Below the pieces are notes generated by a model. That model had not been told where the DNA came from and searched no databases. It saw nothing but the letters and a program-made list of their open reading frames with translations. From a virus, in the IMG/VR virus record IMGVR_UViG_3300034392_000002: a DNA stretch of 62,929 nt; one strand, written 5' to 3'. Both the position numbers and the translations under genes were made by a program. Below, piece after piece: positions 5,611-61,794 of this stretch (its first letter is position 1; every line of letters starts with the position of its first letter).

Positions 5611-5817
5611 ATGGCCTTCAACAACTGGTGGCACTGCCCGTTTTGCAGCGCCACTATTTATTACCACGGGCCGAGCGGCGAGACGCAGGGGCGTGTAGTG
5701 CGGCTGCACTTCAAGTATTGCCGCGTTATCGCCCCGCTCGTCTCGCGGGCCGCGCTCGTACACAAACAACACTATGAAAGGAAGAAACATGAAAGGAACC
5801 GCAAAGGCCGCAGATAA
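5611..5817 (+). CDS. small Cys-containing protein with a basic tail
   Basis: ATG 5611 after aggagg; WHCPFC...HFKYC pattern. Confidence 0.5.
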   Translation: MAFNNWWHCPFCSATIYYHGPSGETQGRVVRLHFKYCRVIAPLVSRAALVHKQHYERKKHERNRKGRR

Positions 5818-7852
5818 CGGCCACTCTAACAATTATGTCCCGGAGGCGGCGCTGGTAGATATTGCCGAAATCAAAGTAGCTCAACAGGCGCGTACTGATT
5901 TCGGCAACATCGAGGAGTTAGCTGCCAGCGTGCGCTCACAAGGAATCCTTCAACCGCTCTTGCTGAGGCCCAACCCAACAGGCTTTCACGCTAAACCAGC
6001 GGGCAATGGATTTCATTTTTATGAGGTGCACAACCGATATGGGAGTGTTATCAGCTCTCCCTTCTACTTTGGTAAAGATTTCCCCGGCAAGAAAACAGAA
6101 GCTCAAGCTAAGGCTGCGGCTGAGGCCGAAGCAGCACGTCTCAACGGAGGTAAATATCTACTCGTCGCTGGCGAACGGCGATTGAAGGCGGCACAGATGG
6201 CGAAGCTCAAGAAAGTGCCTGCCATCATTCGAGAGATGACAGACGAAGAGGCCAGCGCTGCACAGGTCACAGAGAACCTGCAACGCAAAGACCTCAAGCC
6301 GATGGAGGAGGCGCGCGGCTACAAGCAACTCGCAGAATTCAAGGGCCTCAAGACTCTGAAAGAGATTGCCGAGCGTGTGGGCAAGTCGGTCGAGCACGTC
6401 GCGTCCCGCTGGCCGCTTCTCAACCTGGTTGAGCCTGCGCAGCAGCTCGTAGATGAAGGACGGCTGCCACTAAAGCACGCCGCTTATCTCGCCACGCTCG
6501 GCGCAGAGACACAGCCGGCCGCGTTGACTAAGGCTTTCCAGACCCACTGGACACAAAAGGGTCAAGTCCCCAATTATGACAATCCACATAGCTTCGACAC
6601 TTTCAAGCGCGTCATCGAAATGGATGTGTTGCGCGACCTCTCAAATGCTCCGTGGCCGCTCAAACAAGTGTTTGAGCCTGCGCCGAAGGGCTGCGCTCCC
6701 AGTTGCGCTGTCTGCCCGTACAACACCGCTAACGAAGGCGCTCTTTTCGATGCCGGAAAGCAGACGCTCTGCGCCAATGCCGTCGGCTATAACAACAAGA
6801 TGGTGGCGTGGTGGACTATTCAGGCCGAAACGCTGAAGCGCTCGACTGGCCGCGAGGCCGTCTTTGTCGCCAACTCTCACAATCTGACCAAGACGGAGCG
6901 CAAACGCGGTGGATTGCCTGCAACCACTATCGGGCGCGACGAGTGCATGGTCATTCCAAGCAATGAAACCAAATGCGCCTCCTGGGAGCCGGCCGTCGTC
7001 GTGCAGGGCTACATAGACAACAAAACGCCCGGCCATGCCATTACCATCTGCCGCGACCGCAAGTGCAAAGACCACTTCGACCGCGCCGGGGCCTCGATGA
7101 GTAGCACCGTTACTGCCACCTCATCGTCGGCGTCAGACCTGCCGAACAAAGACCAATCGAAGAAGAACCGCGAGCGCAAGCAGGAGCTTTACGACTTGAA
7201 GGTTAATGAGCCGGTGCGCCGCAAGTCACTGGCCGAGGCCATTGCGACGGTCAAGTGGAAGAAGTTAGGACGCTCAGAGTGGAACACAATCGCTATTGCT
7301 CATTACTGCCGCGTGCGGTCGCACACTCAGCGGATTATCCGCGAAGTCTTCAAAGCGGCGACGCAGACAGATTTGCCGGACGCGCATATCGGTGAGACTG
7401 ATTTACTCGGCCATCAGAAACGCATCGGAGAGATTGTGGCCTCTCTGAGCGATGACCAACTCGCACAGTTCATGCTGCTCTGTGCCGTCGGTCACTTTGG
7501 CGAAAATGAGCACATGCACAAGCGTCAGAATCAGGGAGCGCTGAGAGCGTTCGTCGAACACTGGGGCGTCAACTATGCACTTCTCGACGCGACCGAGCGG
7601 GTCGCGCAGTCGTCAAAGAAATACATGGCTAAGCACACTGAGCATCTGCGGAAGGTCAGGGAAGGGAAGGCTGACGTGAAAGATGCTCCACACGTTTATG
7701 ATGAGCCGCCGCCTGAATCTGCGCAGCCCGCGCCAGCAGAACAACCTCAGCCAGTCTCAAAACAGCCAGCCGCTAAAAAGCCAACTACGAAGAAGGCCGG
7801 AGCCAAAAAGCCAGCGAAGGCAGCGGCGAAGAAAGGCGCGCGGAAGAAATGA
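5789..7852 (+). CDS. large ParB/Spo0J N-terminal-domain protein with a Cys-rich middle region and a Lys/Ala/Pro-rich tail
   Basis: ILQPLLLRP ... LLVAGERRLKAAQMA ... TENLQRKDL ParB boxes; ATG 5789 after gaaaggaag (5774 is an alternative start). Confidence 0.75.
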   Translation: MKGTAKAADNGHSNNYVPEAALVDIAEIKVAQQARTDFGNIEELAASVRSQGILQPLLLRPNPTGFHAKPAGNGFHFYEVHNRYGSVISSPFYFGKDFPGKKTEAQAKAAAEAEAARLNGGKYLLVAGERRLKAAQMAKLKKVPAIIREMTDEEASAAQVTENLQRKDLKPMEEARGYKQLAEFKGLKTLKEIAERVGKSVEHVASRWPLLNLVEPAQQLVDEGRLPLKHAAYLATLGAETQPAALTKAFQTHWTQKGQVPNYDNPHSFDTFKRVIEMDVLRDLSNAPWPLKQVFEPAPKGCAPSCAVCPYNTANEGALFDAGKQTLCANAVGYNNKMVAWWTIQAETLKRSTGREAVFVANSHNLTKTERKRGGLPATTIGRDECMVIPSNETKCASWEPAVVVQGYIDNKTPGHAITICRDRKCKDHFDRAGASMSSTVTATSSSASDLPNKDQSKKNRERKQELYDLKVNEPVRRKSLAEAIATVKWKKLGRSEWNTIAIAHYCRVRSHTQRIIREVFKAATQTDLPDAHIGETDLLGHQKRIGEIVASLSDDQLAQFMLLCAVGHFGENEHMHKRQNQGALRAFVEHWGVNYALLDATERVAQSSKKYMAKHTEHLRKVREGKADVKDAPHVYDEPPPESAQPAPAEQPQPVSKQPAAKKPTTKKAGAKKPAKAAAKKGARKK

Positions 7853-26970: not shown

Positions 26971-28209
26971 TTAAGCCGCGTAAGCCTGCATCCACGTCGG
27001 GAATCCGGCGGCGGAGAACAGCACCGCGCCGTCAACGACCACGCGCGCATTACGCTGCACGTTGGCAAACCCGGTGATGATTGAGGCAAACGTGCCGCTG
27101 ATCTGCTTGGAGACGATGCGTTCCGACTCAACGAGGAGCGGTCGGGCCGTGAGCTGCACGAGCGCAGAAGATGGGTCTGCAAACACCATCTTCTGGCCGG
27201 GCACTTTCAAGCTGAGATACAAGTCCTGCATCGTCGGCAGCGGCGACCGCAGGCGTGTCGGGGCGAGCGCGGCCGCGCCGGGGAACTGCGTCCTCAACAC
27301 TTCGGGGAGCATCAGGTAATCGAGCGCGGTTGTGGCGTTGCCGATAATCGCCGTCGAACTGCGACCGAGCAATCCCATTTGAATCCAGACGCGCACCACA
27401 TCTCGGTATGTGATGCCATCGTCCGTGTCTTCGACGCCGATGACTGCCGCCGCCTCGCTGCCGTCGGCCTGGTCGCCGTTGATGAGCGCGAGCACCGCGT
27501 CGCCGTTGAGGATATGACCAAGGATTCTCCCAAAGTCTTCGAAGAAGAGAGCGACCATGTCGAGGCTGTTGAATTCAATGGCCTCGTAGGTAATCTCGAT
27601 TCCCTTAGCGCGCTTCCTGACGGCGACTTCTTTGGAGCCGTACTTGACGGTGCCGACTTCGATGGTCGCGCCCTCTTCACTCTCGGCCAGCGCGGCCTCG
27701 GACAAATCGAGGTGCGGCATCGTGACGGTCATGTTGCCGACCGTGATTTCACGAATGACTAGGTCAGGATAGAAGACCGACTGCACAGCGCCGCGCATAA
27801 TCGGGTCCATGATGACTTCCGGCGAGATCCAGCGCGTGCCGCCAGCGCCGCCTTCGCTCGTGACCGTAAAGGAACTGACGGACTGCTGCATCTTCTTGAA
27901 AGCAGCTTGCATCTGCTCGCGCTGCGCGATGCCCATCCCGCGCAGGATGGCCTCGCGCATAATCTCCGGCAGCAGCCACGCCGTATCATCGTCGCTCATT
28001 AGGGAGCGGACGGTCGTAAAGCTCGGATTGATGCCAAGCTCCGCGAACAACATCTCCGGCGTCGCGCCCGGATGGCTCTCCGCGAGGTATTCGCGCAGGC
28101 CGATGTTGCGTGGCTCATTCACGTTCTGGCGCATTGCTTCCATCGCCTTGACAATCGAGCGGACTTTTCCCTTCAGTCCATGAGTCGCAGTCTTCTTCTG
28201 GACGGTCAT
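26971..28209 (-). CDS. major capsid protein
   Basis: 412 aa; lies after the protease/scaffold and decoration genes; N-terminal LFAELGINPSFTTVRSLM...LLPEIMREAILRG resembles capsid families. Confidence 0.7.
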   Translation of the reverse strand: MTVQKKTATHGLKGKVRSIVKAMEAMRQNVNEPRNIGLREYLAESHPGATPEMLFAELGINPSFTTVRSLMSDDDTAWLLPEIMREAILRGMGIAQREQMQAAFKKMQQSVSSFTVTSEGGAGGTRWISPEVIMDPIMRGAVQSVFYPDLVIREITVGNMTVTMPHLDLSEAALAESEEGATIEVGTVKYGSKEVAVRKRAKGIEITYEAIEFNSLDMVALFFEDFGRILGHILNGDAVLALINGDQADGSEAAAVIGVEDTDDGITYRDVVRVWIQMGLLGRSSTAIIGNATTALDYLMLPEVLRTQFPGAAALAPTRLRSPLPTMQDLYLSLKVPGQKMVFADPSSALVQLTARPLLVESERIVSKQISGTFASIITGFANVQRNARVVVDGAVLFSAAGFPTWMQAYAA

Positions 28210-30026: not shown

Positions 30027-30274
30027 TAAGCTGATGCGTCATCGGGCTTCGCCGCAAGGCAACCAGGGCAGGTCACATCCTGCCAGCGTTGCGAATAACT
30101 GTTGCCGCGCGGCCAAGTGGTCGGCGCTCCGTAATCCTTCGACATCGGGCAGTCCGTCTGGCCAAATTTCAGATGATGGACAACAATTGTCTCCGGCTGT
30201 TTCAAATCTGAGAGGTCGTCTTTCGTGCTACTCATGTTTCCCCTTATGTGAGCTGTAGTCTCTTCACATCTCAT
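30026..30274 (-). CDS. small hypothetical protein
   Basis: ATGA overlap with the upstream gene; an alternative duplicated start with its own RBS at 30235. Confidence 0.45.
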   Translation of the reverse strand: MRCEETTAHIRGNMSSTKDDLSDLKQPETIVVHHLKFGQTDCPMSKDYGAPTTWPRGNSYSQRWQDVTCPGCLAAKPDDASA

Positions 30275-30310
30275 GTTTCCTCTTGTGTGCGCTGTGCTGT
30301 CTTAACATCT
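30233..30310 (-). repeat. Tandem 39-bp duplication (2 units, 32/39 identical) containing RBS plus ATG
   Basis: catgtttccccttatgtgagctgtagtctcttcacatct / catgtttcctcttgtgtgcgctgtgctgtcttaacatct. Confidence 0.85.
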
Positions 30311-30474
30311 AGTAAGTTGCCGGTCGTCTCCATGCTGAGAGTGCGCGGAGCAGTCGCAGCCTGTTCAAAACTCTTGCCACATTGAGGACAGACGCGCCGC
30401 TCGACAGCGGGTTTATCCAGCGGCGCGCTGCACTGCGGGCAGAAGTTTTGGCTGGCTTGACCGAATTGACTCAT
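30271..30474 (-). CDS. small zinc-ribbon protein
   Basis: CPQC ... CPQCG pairs; 67 aa. Confidence 0.5.
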   Translation of the reverse strand: MSQFGQASQNFCPQCSAPLDKPAVERRVCPQCGKSFEQAATAPRTLSMETTGNLLDVKTAQRTQEET

Positions 30475-30510: not shown

Positions 30511-30569
30511 AAAATAAATCCGCCCCGCTAAAGTTTGAAGGCGCGATGCCTTCTTCGTTCAACGGGGCG
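30511..30569 (-). terminator. Compound hairpin followed by a U-rich tract (minus strand)
   Basis: Outer stem cgccccg/cggggcg, inner stem gaaggc/gccttc; the minus strand continues gatttatttt. Confidence 0.5.
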
Positions 30570-30570
30570 T

Positions 30571-30625
30571 ATTATGCGTGCAGAAAGGTTGTTTTCGGTG
30601 TGAGTAACACCGTGAGTAACACCGC
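30571..30625 (-). promoter_or_regulatory. Candidate late promoter module B: 2 x GGTGTTACTCAC - 23 nt - CATAAT (minus-strand reading)
   Basis: 27-bp string tgtgagtaacaccgtgagtaacaccgc is identical to 39213..39239; spacing to the attatg hexamer is identical. Confidence 0.55.
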
Positions 30626-30634
30626 GACGGCTCA

Positions 30635-32257
30635 TTAGGCCGCTACTTCCAGCACCTCCGGCAAAGCGCGATAGCTCTGCGAATCTTTGTCAAATCTCAG
30701 CGTGATAAGAGACGATGCGCTGCCTTTGCGCATTGCGGAAAGCGCACGCAATGCCTTCGCCGCCTCCGGGTCTTTGACCATCAAAGCAGGATCGTAGGCT
30801 GATTCATAACCACATTCCTGAGCGGCCTTATCAGGTGAAATCATGCCTTTCTGAGCTTTGAAGACAGCAGTCTCTGTTCTGACCTGTTCAGCGGTAGCTT
30901 CATTAACGGCATTGCTGGCAGGTGGGCGATTAAACCCGATGGAGATACCGTCAACCTCGATTCCCCCGAGACGCAAATCCAGCATGTATGTTCTCTCCTG
31001 CCTGCGCTTGGGTAAGCGCTGCATATTGCCGGACTGAGCCTTCATAAAGTTGTACACCACGCCGGCGTACGTTTCGGTTGTAGAATCCGTGCGGCCATGA
31101 AAAGCAGGAAAGGTACCCATCCCGGAAAAGACTTGCTGTTCTGACTTCTCATACCATTCGACTCCACCATGAGAATCTGCCGTGAGATTGTCGTGTTTAA
31201 CTGTCTGGTCCTCGTATGTCACAATGATGCCCTTGTTGCTGAGCTTCTCGGCGGCAGCGCCGACTTGGGATTGATAAACCCTCAGGCGAGTTCGATAGGC
31301 AGTTTCTGTTTCATCAGCCTCTTTATCCGGCTTCTTAATCTGAATCGAAATCACACCCAGCAGGCCAAACTTCTTAGCGATAAATTTAATGTTATCCAAC
31401 ATGTCCTTCTGCGATCCTGTAATCGGCTCGATGGCAGCTGTCGCAGGCGGCTTGGCGTAAGGGCTGTTTTCGACTGTTTCCAGAGCGTAGTAACGATATG
31501 TCTCATCGCTTAAGCGGATCAGACCAAGAGGCGAGCGGGCCAGACCTGCTGCCACTCCAGGTTGCTGGTGCGGTATATACTCGCCTTCGATGTGGCGAAA
31601 GCGAATCTGCTCAACAGGGACAATGACTACCTTCTCGACCCGTCGCTTGCTGAAATTCACCACATCTTCGGAAGAGAGAGCGCCCGACCATGCTATCTGC
31701 CGTAAATAAGCATTGATGAGTCCGTCAATGCCTGCACCATTTTTGTAGAGCCTTGCCGCTGACTCATTGAGGCGCTTAATAGCCTGCTGCGTGCGTCGCG
31801 CAGACGAGGCCTCGACGACGATGTTATGACCCGTGTTGCCGAGGTTGACGACGTTGGCGACATACTGGCTCATATCAGGATTGAAAATCATCAGATGCTT
31901 TAGTAGAGCCAGCATCTCAAAATCAATCACAGGGCTTACGCTGCCGTAGAAGGCGAGTGAAGAACCGAAGCGGTCGGCCAGCGTACCTTCCACCGACGAG
32001 CGGCCTGATTCGGGCAACTCCATGCCATTGACGCGCCTCGTGGCGCGCTCTCTAAGAACAGGTGCGAGGAAGCGGAGCTGCTCTGGTGTAGCGTTATTGA
32101 TGAGCGATGTCAGCGGTTCAGCAAGTGAGCCGTGAGCGGTGGAGTCGGCAAGCGTGGCCAGATATAAACATTCCGCCCTGACAGCGAGAGCAGCGTCTCT
32201 CCTATCTAAGCCAAACGCAGAGCGGAACCATTTCTTAAGGTCATTCCAGTAGTCCAT
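30635..32257 (-). CDS. portal protein
   Basis: 540 aa immediately after TerL (TAATG overlap); size and position. Confidence 0.7.
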   Translation of the reverse strand: MDYWNDLKKWFRSAFGLDRRDAALAVRAECLYLATLADSTAHGSLAEPLTSLINNATPEQLRFLAPVLRERATRRVNGMELPESGRSSVEGTLADRFGSSLAFYGSVSPVIDFEMLALLKHLMIFNPDMSQYVANVVNLGNTGHNIVVEASSARRTQQAIKRLNESAARLYKNGAGIDGLINAYLRQIAWSGALSSEDVVNFSKRRVEKVVIVPVEQIRFRHIEGEYIPHQQPGVAAGLARSPLGLIRLSDETYRYYALETVENSPYAKPPATAAIEPITGSQKDMLDNIKFIAKKFGLLGVISIQIKKPDKEADETETAYRTRLRVYQSQVGAAAEKLSNKGIIVTYEDQTVKHDNLTADSHGGVEWYEKSEQQVFSGMGTFPAFHGRTDSTTETYAGVVYNFMKAQSGNMQRLPKRRQERTYMLDLRLGGIEVDGISIGFNRPPASNAVNEATAEQVRTETAVFKAQKGMISPDKAAQECGYESAYDPALMVKDPEAAKALRALSAMRKGSASSLITLRFDKDSQSYRALPEVLEVAA

Positions 32258-35486: not shown

Positions 35487-35781
35487 TCGCCTTTCGGTAC
35501 ACCTCCGATTGCGTAAGTGAGATAACCTGTGCGACCTCGCGCTTAAAGAGGATGAATTCGATGTATTCAGAGAGAGAGATTTCCGCTCCGGCGTTCATGG
35601 CAGTGAACGCGCCGCAATCGAGCAGCAATTCGATGAGCGGGTTTGTCAGGATGCGCTCAATAGTCTCCGGCTTCTCCTCGCGCAGGTAAGCGTAAGAAAT
35701 CAGGAGCGGCAGTTTGGCAGTCACTGACAGACGATCGGATCGCGGTGTGACAGGTTTTTGGTTAATAGGCGCGCGCCTCAT
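35365..35781 (-). pseudogene. DpdA/TGT-like transglycosylase N-terminal fragment
   Basis: LLISYAYL ... LLLDCGAFTAMNAGAEISLSEYIEFI resembles the D-S-G-[AG]-F-[ST] region of the TGT/DpdA family. The ORF is only 138 aa and ends where FolE similarity begins in another frame. Confidence 0.4.
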
Positions 35782-36394
35782 AACTGGTTCCTTTGAGCGC
35801 GCGGCTTAAGCGCTGGAGGACAGAATCTTTGTCAGCCGCGAGGACGTTTTCTATTTTAATAAGGAAGGTTTCCTGCTCCGGGTCGTAGTCACCGATGGCT
35901 GTGGGGTCTACAGACCTGCCCTTCCAGTTGTGGCCGTCAAGGATGGCTTGCCACTCGGCCGGCTCGAGGCCCAGCCAGGAGGGCTCGAACTCTTTGCCCA
36001 TCTGTTTTGAAATCTGGCGGGCATTCTTTTCGAGCAGTCGAGGGTCGAAGTGCGAGAGTCGAGCGAGCTGGTTAGCGGCGATGCGGTAGGCCGCACGCTT
36101 TGCGCCTTTCAAATCAGAGTACTTGCAGGAAATCGTCTTGCAGCCTTCAAGCTGCATGGCGCGCTTGATACCGTGCCCGGCGATGCAGACGTTATTACGG
36201 TCAATCAAAATATCTTCTTCCTGACCGTAGAGGCGAATGCTGGCGCGCAGGAGCACTATCTGCTCGTCGGTGTGGACGTTCTCATTTCGGGGATCGTCCT
36301 TGACCTCATCAATCGGGAGTTCGATGTATCTTTGGCCGCGCTCAGTATGCGCTCCGGCCGCACTCCTTTTTTTCTTTGACGTTCTAGTTGTCAT
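35762..36394 (-). CDS. ParB-like nuclease-domain (ParB/Srx fold) protein
   Basis: IELPIDEVKDDPRNENVHTDEQIVLLRASIRLYGQEEDILIDRNNVCIAGHGIKRAM. Confidence 0.65.
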   Translation of the reverse strand: MTTRTSKKKRSAAGAHTERGQRYIELPIDEVKDDPRNENVHTDEQIVLLRASIRLYGQEEDILIDRNNVCIAGHGIKRAMQLEGCKTISCKYSDLKGAKRAAYRIAANQLARLSHFDPRLLEKNARQISKQMGKEFEPSWLGLEPAEWQAILDGHNWKGRSVDPTAIGDYDPEQETFLIKIENVLAADKDSVLQRLSRALKGTSYEARAY

Positions 36395-36471: not shown

Positions 36472-36954
36472 TCAGAAGAAAACGCTGCTGGTAATCTTTC
36501 TCAAAACCTCCGGCATGGAAACAGGGCTTTTCGAAAAGCCGTTCGACGATTTAAGCTCGTTGCAATCCGTCTTTCGATGGCTGAGCAGGCAATAGATAGA
36601 GCTGATGAGTTGCGGCATGGTGATGGGCTTGGTTAAGACTTCCATCCCGAACTCTTCAGCGTTCTCATGCGTCACGCTGCGGTCATAGGCTGTCAGGAAC
36701 GCTTTGACGATGTGCGGGTAATGTTCGTGGAGCACCGCTGCGACCGTCGCCCCTGATTCTCCCAGCAGATTGACATCGAGGATGGCGGCGGCAACCGGCT
36801 GGCTGGCGATGATGTTCAGCGCTTCATCCGCCGTCTCCGCGAAAACGGTGCGGAACGCAGGTTGGTAAACCTTCATGCCATGCTCGACCATGGCGCGGAT
36901 GTCATCCACATCGTCAACGAATAAGACCAGAGGCAGAGATGTTGTCTCGCTCAT
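36472..36954 (-). CDS. stand-alone response-regulator receiver (CheY-like REC) domain protein
   Basis: LFVDDVDD, phospho-acceptor-like ILDVNL, FLTAY and LTKPI in canonical order. Confidence 0.7.
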   Translation of the reverse strand: MSETTSLPLVLFVDDVDDIRAMVEHGMKVYQPAFRTVFAETADEALNIIASQPVAAAILDVNLLGESGATVAAVLHEHYPHIVKAFLTAYDRSVTHENAEEFGMEVLTKPITMPQLISSIYCLLSHRKTDCNELKSSNGFSKSPVSMPEVLRKITSSVFF

Positions 36955-37989: not shown

Positions 37990-38643
37990 CTAGGGCGCAG
38001 GAAGCAGCTTTTGGGCTGCCGCAACTACTTCTGCGAAGCGCATTGCTCCGCAGTCATAGTGCGAATTTGCAGGGACTTCGAGATGGGAGAACCATCCGTC
38101 GTTTCGGTTATAAGCTCCGCTACGCCTACGCGAGTTGTTCTGCGTGGCCCAGACCTGCCCCTTCATATCCGAGCAGTCGTCGGGCCACGGGTAGCCGCGC
38201 TTGAGCGGAATAAGGCCGAGCATTGCGAGATGGGCCATGAGGGCGGCCAGAGGGCAGAGAGTGCTTTCGACAGGCAGCCAGCTCGCCCGCGCCTGGTCTT
38301 CAACCTTGAGGTCAGGCATGCCGCCGGTAAAGCCGACCATCTCGATTTGAACGAAGGCCCGGCGGTTGCCGGGGTCAACGAGAGCAGCTCCCTGCACGCC
38401 GAGCGGACGACAAGCAATAATCTTGTTCTCGCCGACGATGAAGTGAGGAGCAGAATACCTGGCCGAGAGAGCAGCGAAGGCCGAGGCTACAGTTTGCCCC
38501 TCGGTCGTATGCAGCACACCTACGCCGGTCATCTCCATCGGGATATATGACTTGCCAGCCGGTCGCCGTATCTCGTTCTTGATGATGGGTACGCCGAAGA
38601 GCGGGGCAAGCAGCCATTCGCTGTGACCGTTAGCCCATGCCAT
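37990..38643 (-). CDS. endolysin, N-acetylmuramoyl-L-alanine amidase (Amidase_2/PGRP-like)
   Basis: GVLHTTEG ... APHFIVGENKII ... RAFVQIEMVGF ... SHYDCG. Confidence 0.65.
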   Translation of the reverse strand: MAWANGHSEWLLAPLFGVPIIKNEIRRPAGKSYIPMEMTGVGVLHTTEGQTVASAFAALSARYSAPHFIVGENKIIACRPLGVQGAALVDPGNRRAFVQIEMVGFTGGMPDLKVEDQARASWLPVESTLCPLAALMAHLAMLGLIPLKRGYPWPDDCSDMKGQVWATQNNSRRRSGAYNRNDGWFSHLEVPANSHYDCGAMRFAEVVAAAQKLLPAP

Positions 38644-39074
38644 TATGTGCCCCCCGTGGTTGGACTGTTGCCTGCCCCTTGATTCGGCGGTTTGGTGAAG
38701 CTGGAGACGGCTTCAGGGGCCGCGCGGGTGAAGCCGTAGACGCCGGCCGCGCCAAGCAGGATGTTTGCAAAGACAGCCGCATAGTCAAGCACCGTCTGGC
38801 GTCCGAAGTTGCCCTGCGACCAAGCGAGGAGCGCCGTGAAAATAAGCGAAATGGCGAACACCGCTATCGGCCCGCGCCTGTCCGGGAGGCCCGTCCATTT
38901 CACGAACTGCGTCAGGAAGACGGTGATGGTGCTGGCCGTCACTACGGCAGCCTGCGGCACACCTGAAGGCTCGCCAAGGCCGATGGCAGATTGAATCATC
39001 ATCAACAGCACGTATGCCGAGAAAATCTCCAGTCTGGTTCGACCCATGATGAATGCTCTAAATTGCAGCAGCAT
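38643..39074 (-). CDS. holin-like membrane protein
   Basis: Three hydrophobic segments; TAATG overlap with the endolysin; RBS agaaagga. Confidence 0.6.
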   Translation of the reverse strand: MLLQFRAFIMGRTRLEIFSAYVLLMMIQSAIGLGEPSGVPQAAVVTASTITVFLTQFVKWTGLPDRRGPIAVFAISLIFTALLAWSQGNFGRQTVLDYAAVFANILLGAAGVYGFTRAAPEAVSSFTKPPNQGAGNSPTTGGT

Positions 39075-39104
39075 TTGCTTGTCCTTTCTCTTGACTCAAG
39101 TGTT

Positions 39105-39147
39105 GAATCCACCGGCACGTAAAGTTGAAAAGCGTGCCGGTGGATTC
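39105..39147 (-). promoter_or_regulatory. Perfect 15-bp-stem hairpin in the lysis-operon leader
   Basis: gaatccaccggcacg (13-nt loop) cgtgccggtggattc; a second 7-bp hairpin lies at 39157..39175. Confidence 0.8.
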
Positions 39148-39184
39148 ATGGGTGGTGTTCAGAAATGCTCTGAACTGGGATGGC

Positions 39185-39239
39185 ATTATGACGGCAGCAG
39201 TGGCGGTCAGGCTGTGAGTAACACCGTGAGTAACACCGC
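39185..39239 (-). promoter_or_regulatory. Candidate late promoter module A: 2 x GGTGTTACTCAC - 23 nt - CATAAT (minus-strand reading)
   Basis: 27-bp identity with 30599..30625 and identical 23-nt spacing to attatg (39185..39190). Confidence 0.6.
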
Positions 39240-39249
39240 AGAAACATCC

Positions 39250-39555
39250 TTATGTAGTGAATCCAGAGCGCCGTTCGATGATGCGCCTATCCCTTTCTTC
39301 CTCTCTTCGCATTTTCAGGCAGTTGTCGCACCGTCGCTTTTTTTTTCCGCGTTTCTTCTCTACTGGTCTTCCGCAGTCCCAGCACAGCCCTCGTTTTTTC
39401 AGACGCCTACGATAAGCAGCCATACCTTTTTTCGCTCTTGCGTTCTTTTCATCGGCGTGCGTTCGACAGAAGCTCGATGTGCCGTCAGTCCCGCGCGGAC
39501 ATCCACATTTGCCGCACAGTCCCTGAGCTATTCGCTGGTCGAAGAGTCGAGCCAC
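39250..39555 (-). CDS. basic zinc-finger protein in the Q/Ogr position (candidate late regulator)
   Basis: CGKCGC...CRTH and CWDCG...CDNC; last gene before the late promoter candidate. Confidence 0.4.
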   Translation of the reverse strand: MARLFDQRIAQGLCGKCGCPRGTDGTSSFCRTHADEKNARAKKGMAAYRRRLKKRGLCWDCGRPVEKKRGKKKRRCDNCLKMRREEERDRRIIERRSGFTT

Positions 39556-39990: not shown

Positions 39991-40779
39991 TTACGTCTCA
40001 TTAAATTGCAATGTGCGCTGTGCCGGTGCACAGATTTGTCCCGATGCTTCTGCACACAGACCAAGCACTTCGAGTTCTACTTTGAGTCCTTCACCATAGC
40101 CGGCGAAATATCCATCAGGGACAGGCGGCGGGACTGAAAGAGATCGCGCCTGCTTCATCTGTGCGCGGCTCAAAAATTCATTGAGCGCGACTTCCTTACC
40201 GGGCAGTGCCAACGCGTCTACGGGCACCTCAACAGCGCGGTTGTCCTTCTGTTTCGCGCGCTGCTGATAGCGAAACCCGATTGCAGCAGAGAAGCCGATA
40301 TAAAAGGAAAAGAGAAAAGCCTTATCGCCGGGCCATTCAGGATAGACAAGTTGCTCATAAAACTTCTTCGCACGGCGCGTGTTGTCCTTCGCTCTCTCCT
40401 GCGCAAGGCGGGCCAAACGGCAAAAGGCAAAGATGGATAGTTCCACCTCCTCACGTCGGCCGAAGAACAAGAGCACATTCGATGCGGGCTGAATGCCTGT
40501 GCGGCAGTCGTGGGCACAGGCGATCACCTGCGCCAACTGCTCGGCCCAAGCGACACGTCGCTTGCTCTTAGATTGTCCCCATGCGGCAGGGTTAAGAGCG
40601 TAACCTCCGATTTCCGACGGCGTGACTTCCGAGGCATCAATATCTTCCTGCGTCAGGTTGTTTTCAGCCATCAACCGGCGGGCGCGCTCGCTGAAAGCAT
40701 CTGCCTCCGCAGTATTGCCGAGGCCCGCGGCGCTCTTTGCATGGCGCTGTAACTTCCGAATGGTATCAATAATCTTCAT
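39991..40779 (-). CDS. DUF2786-like protein
   Basis: Start refined to ATG 40779 after ggagg; IRKLQRHAKSAAGLGNTAEADAFSERARRLMAENNL. Confidence 0.5.
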   Translation of the reverse strand: MKIIDTIRKLQRHAKSAAGLGNTAEADAFSERARRLMAENNLTQEDIDASEVTPSEIGGYALNPAAWGQSKSKRRVAWAEQLAQVIACAHDCRTGIQPASNVLLFFGRREEVELSIFAFCRLARLAQERAKDNTRRAKKFYEQLVYPEWPGDKAFLFSFYIGFSAAIGFRYQQRAKQKDNRAVEVPVDALALPGKEVALNEFLSRAQMKQARSLSVPPPVPDGYFAGYGEGLKVELEVLGLCAEASGQICAPAQRTLQFNET

Positions 40780-40849
40780 CGTTTCCACAACCTCCAGAGC
40801 ACGCCACAGACAATCACAATCAGCACTATGCAGAGAGGAATCAGAGGGT

Positions 40850-41041
40850 TCACGAGCCGGTCTCCGCCTGCACATCCCCGGCATGCTGCGCTTCATACAC
40901 AGGCTTGCAGGCGCAGAGCAATTCATCTGTATAGCCAAGCTGCTCTGCGTCTTTGACGATTTCGAGCAGCTCCTTCAGTCGAGCGTCTGTGGCCAACTGA
41001 GTCAAGCTGCCGATGATGTTAGTCACGGCTGCATCAGCCAT
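40850..41041 (-). CDS. small hypothetical protein
   Basis: ATG 41041 after gggagg; the longer track ORF overlaps the upstream gene. Confidence 0.45.
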   Translation of the reverse strand: MADAAVTNIIGSLTQLATDARLKELLEIVKDAEQLGYTDELLCACKPVYEAQHAGDVQAETGS

Positions 41042-41079: not shown

Positions 41080-41634
41080 TCAACTCTCTGCGCGTGGCAG
41101 AATAATGAAAGGCTCTCGCACGCCTCCGCTCCAGCGCTGGGCGGTACGCAGCGCATCCTCTAAAACCTCCTCTGGCGAGAGAGTTGTTCGTCGCGTCAAA
41201 GCATCCAGCGAGCCAAGCGCCACTTGAGCACCGCAACCGAGGGCGTTAAAGTCAATGGCGACTCTCTCGACCTGAAAATCGCCATACACCGAAAAGAGTT
41301 CGCCGCGATAGCCGACCATGAACGCGCCGCCTGAATCTTCGCGTCCATGTTCTTTGGTGGCCCAGCCACTTTGTTTGAGACAATCGCGGACAGCATCAAC
41401 GAAAGTTGTCACCATGAATTTTTCCGTGGAACATTCCTCGGGATGCTGCGGCGGCGAGAAAGAGTATCGGAGGAGTTGCCCCATGCGGTATGAAGCGGAG
41501 AACCCCATCACGAAAGGGCCATTGATGAAGACCTTTTCGTCGGCGCGTACAGTGAGTTCAAGGCCGCTCATGGCAGCGCTATCGCCACCGATCCAAACTC
41601 TTCCTTGAGATTTGATTCCGACGATGCAGGTCAC
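41080..41634 (-). CDS. HslV/proteasome beta-type Ntn-hydrolase (threonine peptidase-like)
   Basis: M-TCIVGI start; counting from Thr as residue 1 gives D17 (GGDS) and K33 (EKVF); GCGAQVALGSL corresponds to the GSG region. Confidence 0.6.
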   Translation of the reverse strand: MTCIVGIKSQGRVWIGGDSAAMSGLELTVRADEKVFINGPFVMGFSASYRMGQLLRYSFSPPQHPEECSTEKFMVTTFVDAVRDCLKQSGWATKEHGREDSGGAFMVGYRGELFSVYGDFQVERVAIDFNALGCGAQVALGSLDALTRRTTLSPEEVLEDALRTAQRWSGGVREPFIILPRAES

Positions 41635-42363: not shown

Positions 42364-44007
42364 TTATTCAATAACATTGACCTTCATGCTCGGAATGGAT
42401 TTGAACCCTGCGCGCGGCTCAATGGTGAGAAAGCCCATCTCAGCCAGCGCTTTGAGGGCTTTATCCACATTACGAGAGTCGTGCCGCCAGTGACGTTTCG
42501 CCATCTCGGTAGCCACTGCGTTTGCCGACTTAGGTTGGTCGAAGAATCCTTCTGCGATGAACAGCGCGCACCGCCCGCGTAAGCTGCTCGTATCACATTT
42601 GACTGTCTCACGCGGATGTCTGACTTCCATCTCAGCGATGGGCTGTGTAAGCACCATCTTGATGCCCTCTTCGCCGCCGAGACGCGCCAAGACCTCCTGC
42701 GTTAACTGCTTGAGATTGACTGAACCGTCGTTGCCACCAGCAGGCATGGACGCCTTGACCTCTTCAATCACCTGCGGCAACACCAGCTCGGCAACTTGTC
42801 GCGGGTCGATCTCTGCACCGGCGCTCGTCACTACTGCGCCCGGCTGGTTTCTAATCGCATCTGCTAGATTATTGATGGCAGCAGTCAGTGCTGTTGCGTC
42901 GAACATCTCCTCATCATCCTCTCTGCGCGTCAGGGCCACCGGCTTCGGCCGCGCGCTCTGTGCCGGGCGGGGCACGTCCGCGATTGCACGTTCGCCTGTT
43001 GCAATCATTCTGGCGTCCTCAACTTTCATCCACGCTGGCTGCACGTAGACCTGCTTGACAGCTTTCCCGTAACAGGCGAAGAACTCCCCGCGGCCCAATG
43101 TCATTACGTCCGAGGCTTTAGGCTTCTGTGTTCCCGCGGGGATGTTGTCAAGCGTGCGTCGCACCTCGTTAGCTTCGCGCTGCACGCCGACAATCCAGAC
43201 GGTCGCGGCGCGCAACATCAGTTTCCAGATGCCTGCGATGTCCTGACTATCCATCCAGACATAATTCCCTAACCCTGCGCCTTCGCGAATCAGCTTTTCG
43301 GCAGACGGCTTAACGACCGTCATGCGCGCTTCAGGGATAAACTTCCACGCTTCAGGCATGATGATGATGACATTGCGCTCGCGCTGGTGAACCCACTCGA
43401 CGACAGAGCGCACGACGAGCATCTGCATCTCTTCGGTGTAGGCGCTTAAATCCATGACGTTGAGGCCCGGAGAGAGCGTGACGCGAGATGCCGCAGGCAG
43501 GCGCTTAATCTGCGGCAGCACGATGTCGAGATATTCGCCGAGCAGCATGAAGAGGTCTTTATCCATCTGCCGGCGTGCCTCGCGCTGAAGCTCCGTGATG
43601 TTGGCGCGCACGTCTGTGAGCGAGTGTGCACCCTGTGCGGCCTTCACAATCCATGCCCGCTCGAACTTCATCTTGTGCTTCATTACTGACGCCATTAAGG
43701 ATTCCACCAGCTCCCAGTAGGGTCGCCCCTCGGACGCCGCTTCGTGAAAGTAGGGCGGGCACTCACGCGCCGCGGCGAAACTCGTCTCGCCGCGCTTGGT
43801 CTTAAAGGCAATGGCGCGCACGTCCGCGCCAGCGCGCGAGATTAAGGCTTCGAGCGTCGTCGTCTTCCCGGACTCCTGCGTCTGGCCGGTCACGGCCAAG
43901 TGGCGCAGTGGGACGGATACAGGCGCACCCGTTTGTATCTCAAAGCCCAGCAGAATTGTTTTCTCTGTTCGATTCATCATCAGGGTTGGGTCGGAGCTAA
44001 AGACCAT
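42364..44007 (-). CDS. HerA/FtsK-like P-loop ATPase with a winged-helix-like C-terminus
   Basis: RHLAVTGQTQESGKTT Walker A; VIIIMPEAWKFIP Walker-B-like; start uncertain. Confidence 0.55.
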   Translation of the reverse strand: MVFSSDPTLMMNRTEKTILLGFEIQTGAPVSVPLRHLAVTGQTQESGKTTTLEALISRAGADVRAIAFKTKRGETSFAAARECPPYFHEAASEGRPYWELVESLMASVMKHKMKFERAWIVKAAQGAHSLTDVRANITELQREARRQMDKDLFMLLGEYLDIVLPQIKRLPAASRVTLSPGLNVMDLSAYTEEMQMLVVRSVVEWVHQRERNVIIIMPEAWKFIPEARMTVVKPSAEKLIREGAGLGNYVWMDSQDIAGIWKLMLRAATVWIVGVQREANEVRRTLDNIPAGTQKPKASDVMTLGRGEFFACYGKAVKQVYVQPAWMKVEDARMIATGERAIADVPRPAQSARPKPVALTRREDDEEMFDATALTAAINNLADAIRNQPGAVVTSAGAEIDPRQVAELVLPQVIEEVKASMPAGGNDGSVNLKQLTQEVLARLGGEEGIKMVLTQPIAEMEVRHPRETVKCDTSSLRGRCALFIAEGFFDQPKSANAVATEMAKRHWRHDSRNVDKALKALAEMGFLTIEPRAGFKSIPSMKVNVIE

Positions 44008-48116: not shown

Positions 48117-49268
48117 CTACTCTTTTCTTCTCCGGCGTCGGCCTCTGCGCTTCGCTTTGCGCGGTCGCAGTTTGCGCCGGCGCTTAAAGGGCAACACCAC
48201 GAGGCGCATCGCGCGGCGCTGGCCCTTCTCTTTTCGGTGGTCGTAAATCTGTGTGGTCTCGACGCGCGCGTGGCCGAGGAGCTGCTGCACGTCCGTAATC
48301 TCTGCGCCCTGGTCCAACAGGTGTGTAGCGAAGGTGTGGCGCAGGCCGTGCGGCGTGCAGGTGCTCTCGAGGCGCGCCTCGCAGGAACGCCGGAGCACGA
48401 TCTTGTAGGGAGCATCCTGACTTAACGGTTTGAGCGAGACTTCTCCCTGCCGCGTGATAGAGCAAAGGAAGGGACCGGGCTTTCCGCCTCGCAGCACAAT
48501 CCAATCGGTAAGTGCGCGCAAGGTTCCTTTGTCTTCGAGGAAGATGCGCCGCTCCTTATTGCCCTTACCAATGACCGTCAGTGTGCGCTCGCGGTGATTG
48601 AAGTTTGAGAGTTGTAATTCGATAGCCTCGGACTTTCGCAGGCCTGCGCCGGCGAGTAATGCAAGGAGCGCCGCGTCCCGCGCGGCGACCAGACTTCGGC
48701 CACGCCCTTGCGCGCACGCTGTAAAGAGAGCCGCCAACTCTTCGAGAGAAAGAGCGCGGGCGCGTTGGAGCCGCACGCCTTCGGCTGGCTTGACTTCGAG
48801 AATGCGGTCGAGTTGTTCCTGACTGATGAGTTTGCTTCTTCTGGCCTGCCGCATCACGCCCCTGATGGCCGAGAGCGTGGCGTTGACGGTCGCGGGTGCA
48901 AGCCCGTCGAAGAGCATCCGGGAGCGCAGGCGCTCGACCTCGACAAAGGTGATTTGCTTCCAGTTGATTTCTCCGACCGTGGTGCGCAAGTACCTGGCGA
49001 CGCGCCGGAGGTTTCTGAACATGGACTCGCGCGAACACTGGCTTGAGAGCGTGATGATGTAGTGGACGGCCGGGCTGATTTCCGCGACGGCGCTCTCTGT
49101 GAGAGCGCGTCGTTCCTCCTGCTCGATGAAGGCCGCGAGCGAGAGCCGGAGCGAGCGCTGGCGTAGCGTGGCAGCCTCCGGGCCGCCCTCGATCACGCGC
49201 AGGGGCCGAGGCTGTGCGGCCGCGCTCTCGCTCTCTGTGGAGTGATTCGTGATAATAGGCGTTTTCAC
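48117..49268 (-). CDS. int: tyrosine recombinase (integrase/XerC-D-like) with an Arg/Lys-rich tail
   Basis: HGLRHTFATHLLDQGAEITDVQQLLGHARVETTQIYDH. Confidence 0.85.
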   Translation of the reverse strand: MKTPIITNHSTESESAAAQPRPLRVIEGGPEAATLRQRSLRLSLAAFIEQEERRALTESAVAEISPAVHYIITLSSQCSRESMFRNLRRVARYLRTTVGEINWKQITFVEVERLRSRMLFDGLAPATVNATLSAIRGVMRQARRSKLISQEQLDRILEVKPAEGVRLQRARALSLEELAALFTACAQGRGRSLVAARDAALLALLAGAGLRKSEAIELQLSNFNHRERTLTVIGKGNKERRIFLEDKGTLRALTDWIVLRGGKPGPFLCSITRQGEVSLKPLSQDAPYKIVLRRSCEARLESTCTPHGLRHTFATHLLDQGAEITDVQQLLGHARVETTQIYDHRKEKGQRRAMRLVVLPFKRRRKLRPRKAKRRGRRRRRKE

Positions 49269-59822: not shown

Positions 59823-61031
59823 TTAGTTGGTCGTTAGTCGTTTATGGTTGCATCTAGCAACGCCCTTCTCATAGCCCTCAGGATAATACAGGCCACTCCC
59901 ACCGCAGTCAGGACATTTACGAACATCGCCCTGCGGGGTGGGAGTCGGCTCGCGGCTGGCCTCGGCCTTCCCTTCCTCAGTGAGTTGCCGCTGGTCTTTC
60001 TTCCAGAGCCGTCGCCGCAGGTGTTCGGCGAGGAACGAAGGCACAGATGAGATGGTAGTGCGAGCGGCAGCAATCTTCAACTCAGCGACGAGGACCTCGG
60101 CCAGCTCCGTCCAACGCTCTGCATCAGCGTGAGACGGAGCGACTCCCGTTAGCTCTGTGGTTGTCGTTTTCAGCCGTTCGACCATGCCAGCCAGCGCAGC
60201 GTCATCATCAATCGTTCGCTGGTCTTTAAGAAAAGTCTTAGCTTCGCCGGAAGCAGTTGATTCTGTAAGAGATGAACTCTGGTCACTCTGAGCAGATTCT
60301 GCACTGGGTGGTCTGAGCAGATTCGACTCTGTGTGGTCTGAGTGGTCTGTGCTGTTCACCTGCACAGGGTTGCCGTCCAAATCGAAAGGAAGGCGCGCTT
60401 CTTCCGGGAGATGAACAGAATAGAGATTGCCGTCCTGCTCGCCATGAATTGACTGCCATGAAACTAGCCCGACCGCGCGCAGGTGCAGCAGATTATCTCT
60501 GAGCGTATGAGTCGAACCGATGTCTGAGCCTTTCATCAATTCCATTCGGCGCAACCTGACAGTCACTACCGGGACTATCGCGCCGCGGGTTTTCGAATAC
60601 AGGTAATCGTAAAGCTGTTTTGATTTTCCTCTAAAGAGGCCGTGGCGGATGGCATCCCGAACGATGGAGTTTGCGGCCTTCATATAATCGCGAGCTGGCG
60701 CGATTGCGGTCTGTGCAGTTGTCCTGCTCAGAGTAGAACGACTGCCCTGTGCAGCCTTCCTGCTCTGAGTAGTTTGTCTGCTCGGAGTTGATGGCCTGCT
60801 CTGTGCAGGACTGATGATCTGAGTGGCCTGTGCTGAAGAGGTGCTCTGAGTAGGTGAACTGCTCTGAGCATCCGAAGTGCCTAGAGTACGCTCTGCTTCG
60901 GGTTGAGCTTCAGCTCTCCCCATGAGACGGTTCATTACACTTTTAACGGTCGCATTCTCGGCAGGGGTAATTGATACAGACTCAATACTATACTTCCTGC
61001 GCCTGCGCGACTGCGTTTGGTCTTTCGACAC
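59823..61031 (-). CDS. second O-like winged-helix initiator / partition-adaptor candidate with a Ser/Thr/Gln-rich N-terminus and a CxxCGGSG zinc knuckle
   Basis: GTG start after aggaga; LYDYLYSKTRGAIVPVVTVRLRRMELMKGSDIGSTHTLRDNLLHLRAVGLV; C-terminal KCPDCGGSGLYYPEG. Confidence 0.5.
   Translation of the reverse strand: MSKDQTQSRRRRKYSIESVSITPAENATVKSVMNRLMGRAEAQPEAERTLGTSDAQSSSPTQSTSSAQATQIISPAQSRPSTPSRQTTQSRKAAQGSRSTLSRTTAQTAIAPARDYMKAANSIVRDAIRHGLFRGKSKQLYDYLYSKTRGAIVPVVTVRLRRMELMKGSDIGSTHTLRDNLLHLRAVGLVSWQSIHGEQDGNLYSVHLPEEARLPFDLDGNPVQVNSTDHSDHTESNLLRPPSAESAQSDQSSSLTESTASGEAKTFLKDQRTIDDDAALAGMVERLKTTTTELTGVAPSHADAERWTELAEVLVAELKIAAARTTISSVPSFLAEHLRRRLWKKDQRQLTEEGKAEASREPTPTPQGDVRKCPDCGGSGLYYPEGYEKGVARCNHKRLTTN
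60285..60351. repeat. Dyad-containing repeats TCTGAGCAGATTC (2 exact copies plus degenerate copies) inside the initiator-like gene
   Basis: 60287..60299 and 60312..60324 are identical but read in different codon phases (SNLLR vs ESAQS). Confidence 0.8.
60722..60871. repeat. Degenerate ~18-bp periodic repeats with core CTGCTC(A/T)GAG
   Basis: cctgctcagagtag, cctgctctgagtag, cctgctctgtgcag, gtgctctgagtag, tgctctgagca; the core is the reverse complement of the 60285 motif. Confidence 0.65.
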
Positions 61032-61794
61032 GGCTGATAATCTCCTGAGTTAGTTGCTCGTAGTCTTGATGTGCACGGCTCCCGTGAGCGTAATCAACGA
61101 TCGGCATACGCGCGGCAGAGGATTCCACTAAAGTCGCCGTGTGCCTGATGATGGTATCTAGGGCCAAGCCCTCAAAATCCTCTTTAATCTTCTCCAGCAC
61201 GTCTTTATTGACATTCACGTTGCTGCGATGAATGGTCGCCAGCGCATAGATTTGCAGCGCCGGATTAGATTCTTCCATGACATCGTTAACGATGGCCATC
61301 AAGCGCTTTAACGCAGCGTAAGCAAACCAGTTCGTTTGAATCGCTACAATCAGGTGTGTGGCGGCACAGAAGGCGTTAACAGTAGAAATCCCAAGCGTCG
61401 GCGCACAATCAACGACCGTGTAATCGAAATCGCTCTCGAGCTGCGCCAGTGCACGCGCCAGCCGCATCTCGCGATTGATAACGGAAACGAGCTTCAGGTC
61501 AATCTCAGCCAGCGCCAGATGGCCGGGCGCAAGTTGGAGGTTAGGGCCGACGGGCTTGATGATCGCTTGCATGCCAGGAGTCTTTTCCGACATCAGAGCA
61601 TAGGAACTCAGCATCTCGTCTTGCGGTGTCTCCTGACCTAAGTGGTCAGTAGCATTAGCCTGTGGGTCCAAGTCCACCAGCAGCACGCGCCGGTTGGAAC
61701 GCGCCAGACAGGTTGCCAGATTAACCGCTGTCGTTGTCTTTCCGACGCCGCCCTTTTGATTTGCGATGACGATAGTTTTCATCTGACTGCTCAT
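60988..61794 (-). CDS. parA: ParA/Soj-type partition ATPase
   Basis: KTIVIANQKGGVGKTTTAVNLA deviant Walker A. Confidence 0.85.
   Translation of the reverse strand: MSSQMKTIVIANQKGGVGKTTTAVNLATCLARSNRRVLLVDLDPQANATDHLGQETPQDEMLSSYALMSEKTPGMQAIIKPVGPNLQLAPGHLALAEIDLKLVSVINREMRLARALAQLESDFDYTVVDCAPTLGISTVNAFCAATHLIVAIQTNWFAYAALKRLMAIVNDVMEESNPALQIYALATIHRSNVNVNKDVLEKIKEDFEGLALDTIIRHTATLVESSAARMPIVDYAHGSRAHQDYEQLTQEIISRVERPNAVAQAQEV

Follow-up and report, generated by a model that had tools for sequence, protein, structure and literature searches.

The 62,929-nucleotide (nt) stretch of viral DNA in IMG/VR record IMGVR_UViG_3300034392_000002, here called the window and used whole for all positions, carries a compact intergenic element between a small zinc-finger gene and its probable lysis genes. 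We call this element module A; it is read on the minus strand, as is a second copy, module B. The zinc-finger gene (39250..39555, minus strand, GTG start, TAA stop at 39250-39252) encodes a basic 101-aa protein with two zinc-ribbon units, which is a candidate late activator. Twelve nucleotides past its stop codon begin two tandem copies of the 12-mer GGTGTTACTCAC, one distal (39226..39237) and one proximal (39214..39225), and these are followed by a spacer of 23 nt (39191..39213) and by CATAAT (39185..39190), a 5/6 match to the TATAAT -10 hexamer. If this putative -10 hexamer is assumed to occupy -12 to -7, the distal 12-mer would lie at -59 to -48 and the proximal one at -47 to -36, with its centre at -41.5, and the spacer would take up -35 to -13. 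The first gene after the module is a probable holin (38643-39074, minus strand, ATG at 39074; weak match to phrog_1299, E = 3e-4), and a probable endolysin follows it (37990-38643, minus strand; marginal match to phrog_17214, E = 0.008). A previous sequence-only reading had described the tandem 12-mers, the spacer and the hexamer ahead of lysis genes, with the basic zinc-finger protein encoded upstream, and we found all of its coordinates and this gene setting to be correct; the upstream open reading frame (ORF) of 101 aa is Cys-rich and basic.

The same reading had reported that the repeat recurs with the same spacing about 8.6 kb away, and this was borne out. In module B, two tandem copies of GGTGTTACTCAC (30600..30623, minus strand) start 11 nt past the portal stop codon (30635-30637) and are followed by a 23-nt spacer (30577..30599) and CATAAT (30571..30576). 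A 27-nt string, GCGGTGTTACTCACGGTGTTACTCACA, is common to modules A and B, which lie 8,614 nt apart. The exact 12-mer search that had been suggested returned only four occurrences in the window, all within the two modules, and these are its only exact tandem 12-mer pairs; no such pair was found in 200 simulated windows. In a position-weight scan each module scored 31.1 bits; the runner-up site reached 2.9, and the highest score over 30 shuffles was 10.5. Because the 12-mer is confined to four positions, and given the simulations and weight-matrix scores, a chance origin of the two modules is excluded. No third, weaker module was found in the window by the position-weight search. Two lone 12-mers within coding regions score well against the family matrix, GATGTTGCGCGC at 43208-43219 and GATGTTGTTCGC at 28043-28054 (both minus strand); neither has a partner copy or a CATAAT at the right distance, and both are probably chance matches.

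Neither module has a TTGACA-like -35 hexamer 16-18 nt upstream of its -10. Module A carries AGCCTG at the -35 position, which had rightly been called poor and is not -35-like, and module B carries ACCGAA; among relatives the position is not conserved, with GCCAAT, ACCATA, CCTCCC and others found there. A scan for sigma-70 consensus promoters did not call the modules, and consensus promoters in the late region of about 30 kb were not above chance.

To follow the element in other phages, related contigs (designated by L numbers) were fetched by three independent routes, namely portal homology, a degenerate DNA pattern and homology to the zinc-finger protein, and were then scanned for tandem repeats. 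Two 12-mers, 23 nt and CATAAT were found in eleven further Acidobacteriota-type phage contigs, one of which (L043) is a variant with 11-mers and 25 nt. Portal homology gave L001, with two copies of GATGATACGCAC on both the lysis side and the head side, L002, with two copies of GGTGTTGCTCAC, and L004, with two copies of CATGTTGCCCAC on the head side. The degenerate pattern gave L007 (head side, GGTGTTGCTCAC twice), L009 (GATGTTGCCCAC twice) and L029 (GGTGTTGCCCAC plus GGTGTTGCTCAC), as well as L011 and L023, which have degenerate 12-mers in three consecutive modules. The remaining loci were retrieved by zinc-finger protein homology only: L042 (TATGTTGCCTAC plus TATGTTGCTCAC), L045 (TATGTTGTGCGC twice), L046 (C/TATGATGCGCAC), L048 (TTATGTTGCCCC/G) and L043, in which the 11-mer pair and the 25-nt spacer add up to the same 47-nt total.

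What is constant in these modules is the head-to-tail pair, its distance from the hexamer, and CATAAT itself, which is also unchanged in the loci retrieved without requiring it (L001, L002, L004, L042, L043, L045, L046 and L048). The 12-mer varies from phage to phage; in the window and in L001, where both modules lie on one contig, the same 12-mer is found in both copies and at both modules. The spacer sequence is not conserved, and the spacers of at least 12 modules contain no TTGACA-like element. The modules of the related contigs are intergenic and point into lysis or head genes, except for those of L011 and L023, which point into a replication-type gene. Such a fixed layout with phage-specific 12-mers is the pattern expected for a promoter in which -35 recognition would be replaced by a phage-encoded specificity factor.

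L002 and L007 come from the same sample, have the same 12-mer and are complementary in gene content; the two contigs do not overlap, and it is not proven that they are one phage. The exact 24-mer of the window is absent from IMG/VR, and portal searches with a single sequence gave no match among viral or genome contigs. Most metagenome matches to the relaxed pattern were unrelated satellite arrays and were discarded. These are long tandem arrays of the 12-mer ACTGCAACACAC and its variants in many short metagenome contigs (Ga01050xx, Ga0209284, Ga0335396 and others; L010, L012, L013, L015, L018, L024-L028, L031 and L033-L039), whose match to the pattern is compositional and which seem to have no relation to the phage modules.

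The zinc-finger gene accompanies the modules. Homologues, detected by tblastn and by searching six-frame ORFs with a profile, lie directly upstream of an A-type module in nine of ten contigs (the window, L002, L009, L029, L042, L043, L045, L046 and L048). In the tenth, L001, the homologue stands 1.5 kb upstream of the module, with an inserted minus-strand PadR cassette between them. As in the window, the repeats are near or overlap the stop codon of the gene in L002, L009, L029, L042, L043, L045 and L046; in L048 they begin about 100 nt past it. The related contig L005 (67% portal identity) has neither the zinc-finger gene nor the repeats and keeps the genes for a receiver-domain (REC), a replication-type and a TPR protein.

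The zinc-finger protein gave no match in a word-indexed protein search, because gene callers miss its ORF in related records. The ORF was miscalled on the opposite strand in L001 (2846-3175) and in another frame in L002 (478-804). Such miscalling implies that the family is under-represented in, and largely absent from, protein databases. The window protein has one CX2C-X12-CX2H and one CX2C-X14-CX2C zinc unit, and after each comes a long basic helix; the AlphaFold2 model (predicted local distance difference test score, pLDDT, 88.9) consists of a helix (2-10), a zinc knuckle, a second helix (31-55), a second knuckle and a third helix (77-98). No match was obtained in Pfam at E <= 0.01 or in PHROG, and neither a sequence profile search of the PDB nor Foldseek against the PDB gave anything significant, the best fold match being DksA2 at E = 9.7. 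The protein resembles only uncharacterised viral double-zinc-ribbon proteins. An exhaustive HMMER search collected 86 distant relatives, among which the two-unit proteins of about 100 aa form one group; in larger relatives the unit GLCxxCGxPRGxDGTxxxCRxCA plus basic helix occurs in arrays of 2 to 8, and one of these proteins has a C-terminal HNH nuclease domain. The very basic composition, the model and the occurrence of the unit in arrays, one of them with a nuclease domain, fit a zinc-knuckle-plus-helix unit that would serve as a DNA-binding module, and the protein appears to belong to a previously undescribed zinc-ribbon family with a predicted DNA-binding function.

We observed a conserved architecture with 12-mers particular to each phage, and a zinc-finger gene that co-occurs with it in a syntenic position. 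These observations lead us to propose, with a probability of roughly 0.6, that the modules are late promoters dependent on the upstream two-zinc-ribbon protein as activator. The sequence-only reading had suggested such a promoter, with the same protein as candidate regulator, and the comparative data (co-occurrence in ten contigs, phage-specific 12-mers, unconserved -35) now support it well. We infer promoter activity and the start site from this layout. Modules A and B would be two late promoters of a temperate Acidobacteriota phage of Pyrinomonadaceae type, each with a sigma-70-type -10 hexamer, CATAAT, and no -35, in place of which head-to-tail 12-bp sites would stand at about -59 to -36. 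The zinc-finger protein, encoded by the last gene before module A, would accumulate from early or middle transcription and then bind the tandem 12-mers, most likely as two molecules arranged head to tail. Binding of one molecule with one zinc-ribbon unit on each 12-mer seems less likely, because the DNA copies are identical while the two units of the protein differ. Once bound, the protein would recruit or stabilise host RNA polymerase. The centre of the proximal site, at about -41.5, would correspond to a class II activator position, beside sigma region 4 and the alpha subunits; sites at such positions are those from which class II and class I activators contact these parts of the polymerase. 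Transcription from module A would cover the lysis and REC genes, packaging and the portal; that from module B would cover the head and tail genes.

Each module of the window is followed by a leader with potential secondary structure. Past module A, the two hairpins of the sequence-only reading were both recovered: a 7-bp stem, GTTCAGA/TCTGAAC (39157..39175, minus strand), and a perfect stem that had been given as 15 bp and is 16 bp with a closing U-A pair (39104..39148, minus strand; 13-nt loop, no U-tract, ΔG -30.2 kcal/mol, z = -9.8). The stem core of the latter, TCCACCGG/CCGGTGGA, is common to the window and L001. Folding of the leaders in related phages gave strong hairpins only in the window, L001 and L042 and none in L002, L029 and L009, so that the two-hairpin leader as such is not conserved. 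Rfam scans at gathering and permissive thresholds gave no match at either leader of the window (whether Rfam includes a put model was not checked). Both hairpins are thus best seen as accessory, and judging from this distribution leader hairpins would not be a core part of the module; the 16-bp hairpin could be an early-operon stop or a stabiliser of the mRNA 5' end.

Module B is followed by a different, terminator-like structure (30511..30569, minus strand) made of a hairpin, CGCCCCG...CGGGGCG (30569..30521, core ΔG -21.5), and then TTTATTTT (30518..30511). The hairpin begins 2 nt past CATAAT and its 5' arm overlaps the expected start site. The sequence CATAATACGCCCCGT, whose CGCCCCG forms the hairpin base, is invariant in the four B-type modules (4/4); the base is kept in L001, L007, L004 and L005 and the interior varies. 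A U-run after the B-type hairpin is found only in the window, L001 and L005 and is absent from L004 and L007. As the hairpin and U-run are duplicated at both equivalent positions in the repeat-less L005, this element is separate from the module. Since the hairpin starts 2 nt past the -10, a module B transcript would be without most of the 5' arm. The hairpin and U-run may therefore stop only transcripts that arrive from upstream, such as those from module A, and spare those begun at module B, within the 5' arm.

Several observations weigh against activation by the zinc-finger protein, and some of them favour another reader. The start site used for numbering is assumed from CATAAT. No terminator stands between the zinc-finger gene and module A, and early read-through into the lysis genes therefore needs another block, unless the U-less 16-bp hairpin serves. 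Protein-DNA covariation over 7 and then 10 cognate pairs, an underpowered comparison, gave no convincing column, and three loci with a zinc-finger homologue (L041, L044 and L047) are without a module. Conversely, L011 and L023 have three modules and no zinc-finger gene on their 10-12 kb, and these modules precede a replication-type gene, not late genes. Such findings would suit activator-dependent promoters whose 12-mers are read by another phage protein, such as a TPR-helix-turn-helix (HTH) protein or REC together with a partner, or by a host regulator, the zinc-finger gene being a mere syntenic neighbour; in many phages of this group the operon indeed also keeps a receiver-domain gene. We nevertheless regard this as unlikely. 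If a host factor read the 12-mers, their divergence between related phages would have no explanation, and the REC gene lies downstream of module A and lacks a DNA-binding domain. The REC-domain, replication-type and TPR proteins were rejected as readers since all three are present in the repeat-less L005, and only the zinc-finger gene is both in all ten contigs with an A-type module and absent from module-less L005. A phage-encoded sigma factor or RNA polymerase was also rejected, as Pfam finds neither in the early region.

That the zinc-finger protein acts instead as a Q-like antiterminator, loaded on RNA polymerase through the repeats and reading through leader hairpins or terminators, is in our view improbable, and with it the lambda PR'/tR'-type or HK022 put-type leader of the sequence-only reading is not upheld as a core property; a put-type leader would be a conserved RNA of two stem-loops that acts on polymerase with no protein involved. 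The order of regulator, promoter module, leader hairpin, holin, endolysin and terminase is that of a lambdoid Q cassette, and two protomers of Q21 likewise bind a direct repeat, head to tail and cooperatively (10.1101/651190; PMC6606751). Moreover, terminator-like hairpins follow module B in the window and L001, a canonical terminator follows the triple module of L011 and L023, and apart from the 16-bp hairpin past module A no obvious barrier separates early transcription from the holin. Against this, Q-binding elements (QBEs) lie between -35 and -10 (subsites near -21 and -13), and Q depends on a sigma-dependent pause element that resembles a -10 (PMC6606751), whereas the repeats are upstream of -35, more than 30 bp from the end of a promoter-proximal paused polymerase. 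A pause-like hexamer (at least 4/6 matches, A2 and T6 required, positions 6-40 after CATAAT) is lacking from the first ~35 nt in 11 of 12 modules. PR'-type promoters, which fire constitutively, contain a -35 element, and the modules have none; strong leader hairpins and U-runs are, as described above, absent from several relatives; and the protein is unlike any Q family, with no Pfam match and no sequence or fold match in the PDB. It is highly improbable that the 12-mers are not transcription signals at all and are iterons, recombination or packaging sites, or operators for a zinc-finger repressor. Direct repeats are typical of iterons, and those of L011 and L023 lie near ParA and the replication-type gene; yet an invariant 23 nt to an invariant -10-like hexamer, the orientation towards late genes and two copies per site are promoter features, and a site at -36 to -59 in a promoter without a -35 is poorly placed for repression and would leave that promoter with no means of activation.

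The triple modules (L011:2031-2340 and L023:1159-1480) have a period of 59 nt, and each of their degenerate 12-mer pairs is followed by 23 nt and CATAAT. A conserved leader of about 125 nt, ending in a canonical intrinsic terminator, then precedes a replication-initiator-like gene; the two contigs differ in the terminator stem by a compensatory G:C to C:G change. The element also carries ParA, iteron-like TTTAGACG repeats and a TerS-like gene. L011 and L023 may be a satellite or phage-plasmid that senses the activator of a helper in trans, or may be incomplete genomes. A more far-reaching scheme, which we consider quite improbable, would make the zinc knuckle plus basic helix a modular DNA-reading unit with a register of about one 12-bp site each: a two-unit protein would read 2 x 12 bp as a single molecule, 4- to 8-unit fusions to HNH or HTH would read longer targets, and L011 and L023 would be satellites sensing the late switch of their helper phage. 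If true, the unit would be a prokaryotic counterpart of zinc-finger or transcription activator-like effector (TALE) arrays.

As regards the genomic setting, the window carries integrase, ParA and ParB-like genes, an AAA_24 ATPase and an HslV-like peptidase, and is a temperate phage or phage-plasmid. ParA, two ParB-like genes and a tyrosine integrase occur together (60988-61794, minus; 5774-7852, plus; 35762-36394, minus; and 48117-49268, minus), and the element could persist either as a plasmid-prophage or by chromosomal integration. The window shows no tRNA genes and no clear host flanks, and megablast of 14 kb against GenBank phages gave no match. The host is taken to be an acidobacterium because relatives of the portal come from Pyrinomonadaceae and Blastocatellales metagenome bins. 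The late genes are all on the minus strand. After module A come the probable holin, whose ORF is 61% identical to the ORF that follows the L001 module, the probable endolysin, two small ORFs, the stand-alone REC gene, ParB-like and queuosine-pathway-like genes, the large terminase and the portal. The first ORF past module B (30271..30474, minus strand) encodes a small zinc-ribbon protein of 67 aa, homologues of which follow module B in L001 and L004; an 82-aa ORF, a head protease/scaffold, the major capsid, the tape measure and tail genes come next. Just upstream of the zinc-finger gene lie genes for a DUF2786/DUF7168 protein (39991-40938, minus) and an HslV/proteasome-like peptidase (41080-41634, minus), and in L029 an HslV-like gene is likewise directly upstream of the zinc-finger gene.

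Two further observations concern the late region of this group. A stand-alone receiver domain (PF00072) without output domain is encoded in the late operon just past the lysis genes in many of these phages (window 36472-36954, minus; L001 6483-6899; L002 3263-3748; L005 5709-6152; L043 5347-5841; L045 1074-1487), and it might interfere with host two-component signalling. In L005 (4583-4945 and 11740-11815), an 87-aa CxxC protein is encoded in place of the zinc-finger gene, and after it comes a 78-nt element composed of ACATCTAGCGGCGTGAAAT and a ACGCCCCG...CGGGGCGT hairpin with a T-run, which stands ahead of the lysis region and again after the portal. This gene and element may form an alternative late-control cassette at the same two positions.

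Acidobacteriota are one of the most abundant soil phyla, and to our knowledge nothing is known of the timing of gene expression in their phages. The data define a candidate switch made of a protein of about 100 aa and a 24-bp site that stands at a constant 23 nt from an unchanging -10; natural specificity variants of this switch exist. The module could be used as a sequence signature for late-operon starts in metagenomic phage contigs of this group, and cognate protein/site pairs would be possible orthogonal promoter parts if the protein works in heterologous hosts.

Among known systems, the Ogr-type label given by the sequence-only reading holds as an analogy and not as a family assignment. 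P2 Ogr, P4 Delta and 186 B are, as predicted here for the zinc-finger protein, small zinc-binding activators of several late promoters without a usable -35. Ogr-type activators bind upstream of -35, and P4 Delta looks like a tandem of two Ogr-like units; the protein studied here likewise has two units. Ogr itself has a single C-X2-C-X22-C-X4-C finger and its site is a dyad, TGT-N12-ACA, centred near -55; in contrast, the present protein has two CX2C-X12-14-CX2(C/H) knuckles and its putative site is a head-to-tail direct repeat at -59 to -36. Ogr_Delta (PF04606) was not among the weak Pfam matches of five zinc-finger homologues at E <= 10. Head-to-tail binding to direct repeats beside promoters that have a good -10 but lack a -35 is also a feature of lambda cII and PhoB/OmpR-type systems. 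The cII site (TTGC-N6-TTGC) straddles -35, pho boxes lie closer to -10, and the proteins have HTH or winged helix folds. They thus differ from the present case in DNA-binding fold, repeat length and position, and have no homology to the zinc-finger protein.

With lambdoid Q the modules share the position of the regulator gene, here a candidate one, which adjoins the late promoter and lysis cassette, an arrangement kept in L002, L029, L042 and L043, and hairpins or terminators in some leaders. Intrinsic terminators before the late genes are unevenly distributed: a U-run hairpin follows module B in the window and in L001, the hairpin after module A of the window has no U-tract, and none is significant in L002, L029 and L009. 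The differences are that the modules have neither the QBE position nor a pause element or -35, and that the protein folds are unrelated. Alt of phage TP901-1, as cited in PMC3753634, is a phage-specific activator binding a promoter region upstream of terS and has a narrow phylogenetic distribution; the protein is unrelated and the host lactococcal.

The closest functional precedent for the zinc-finger protein and its modules is the Ltr superfamily of late activators in Gram-positive phages (RinA, ArpU and LtrA/B/C; PMC3753634). The direct repeats bound by RinA, ArpU and LtrC lie just distal to the genes that encode these proteins, and are required to fire the late operon with terS, morphogenesis and lysis genes (PMC3753634). 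The likeness lies in a small phage gene, here for a candidate activator, that ends the early/replication region, in adjacent distal repeats, which are found immediately distal to the regulator gene in the window and its relatives, and in repeat sequences that vary with the phage, matched in the Ltr systems to its own activator. The two systems differ in that the proteins are unrelated (Ltr proteins are not zinc-ribbon proteins, and the zinc-finger protein has no Pfam or PHROG match) and in that three 7-nt Ltr repeats stand against two 12-mers at a fixed 23 nt from CATAAT, with two such promoters and an Acidobacteriota host. Taken from its sequence features, the switch described here would be a new protein family with a new site architecture doing a known kind of job, that of a late-gene activator.

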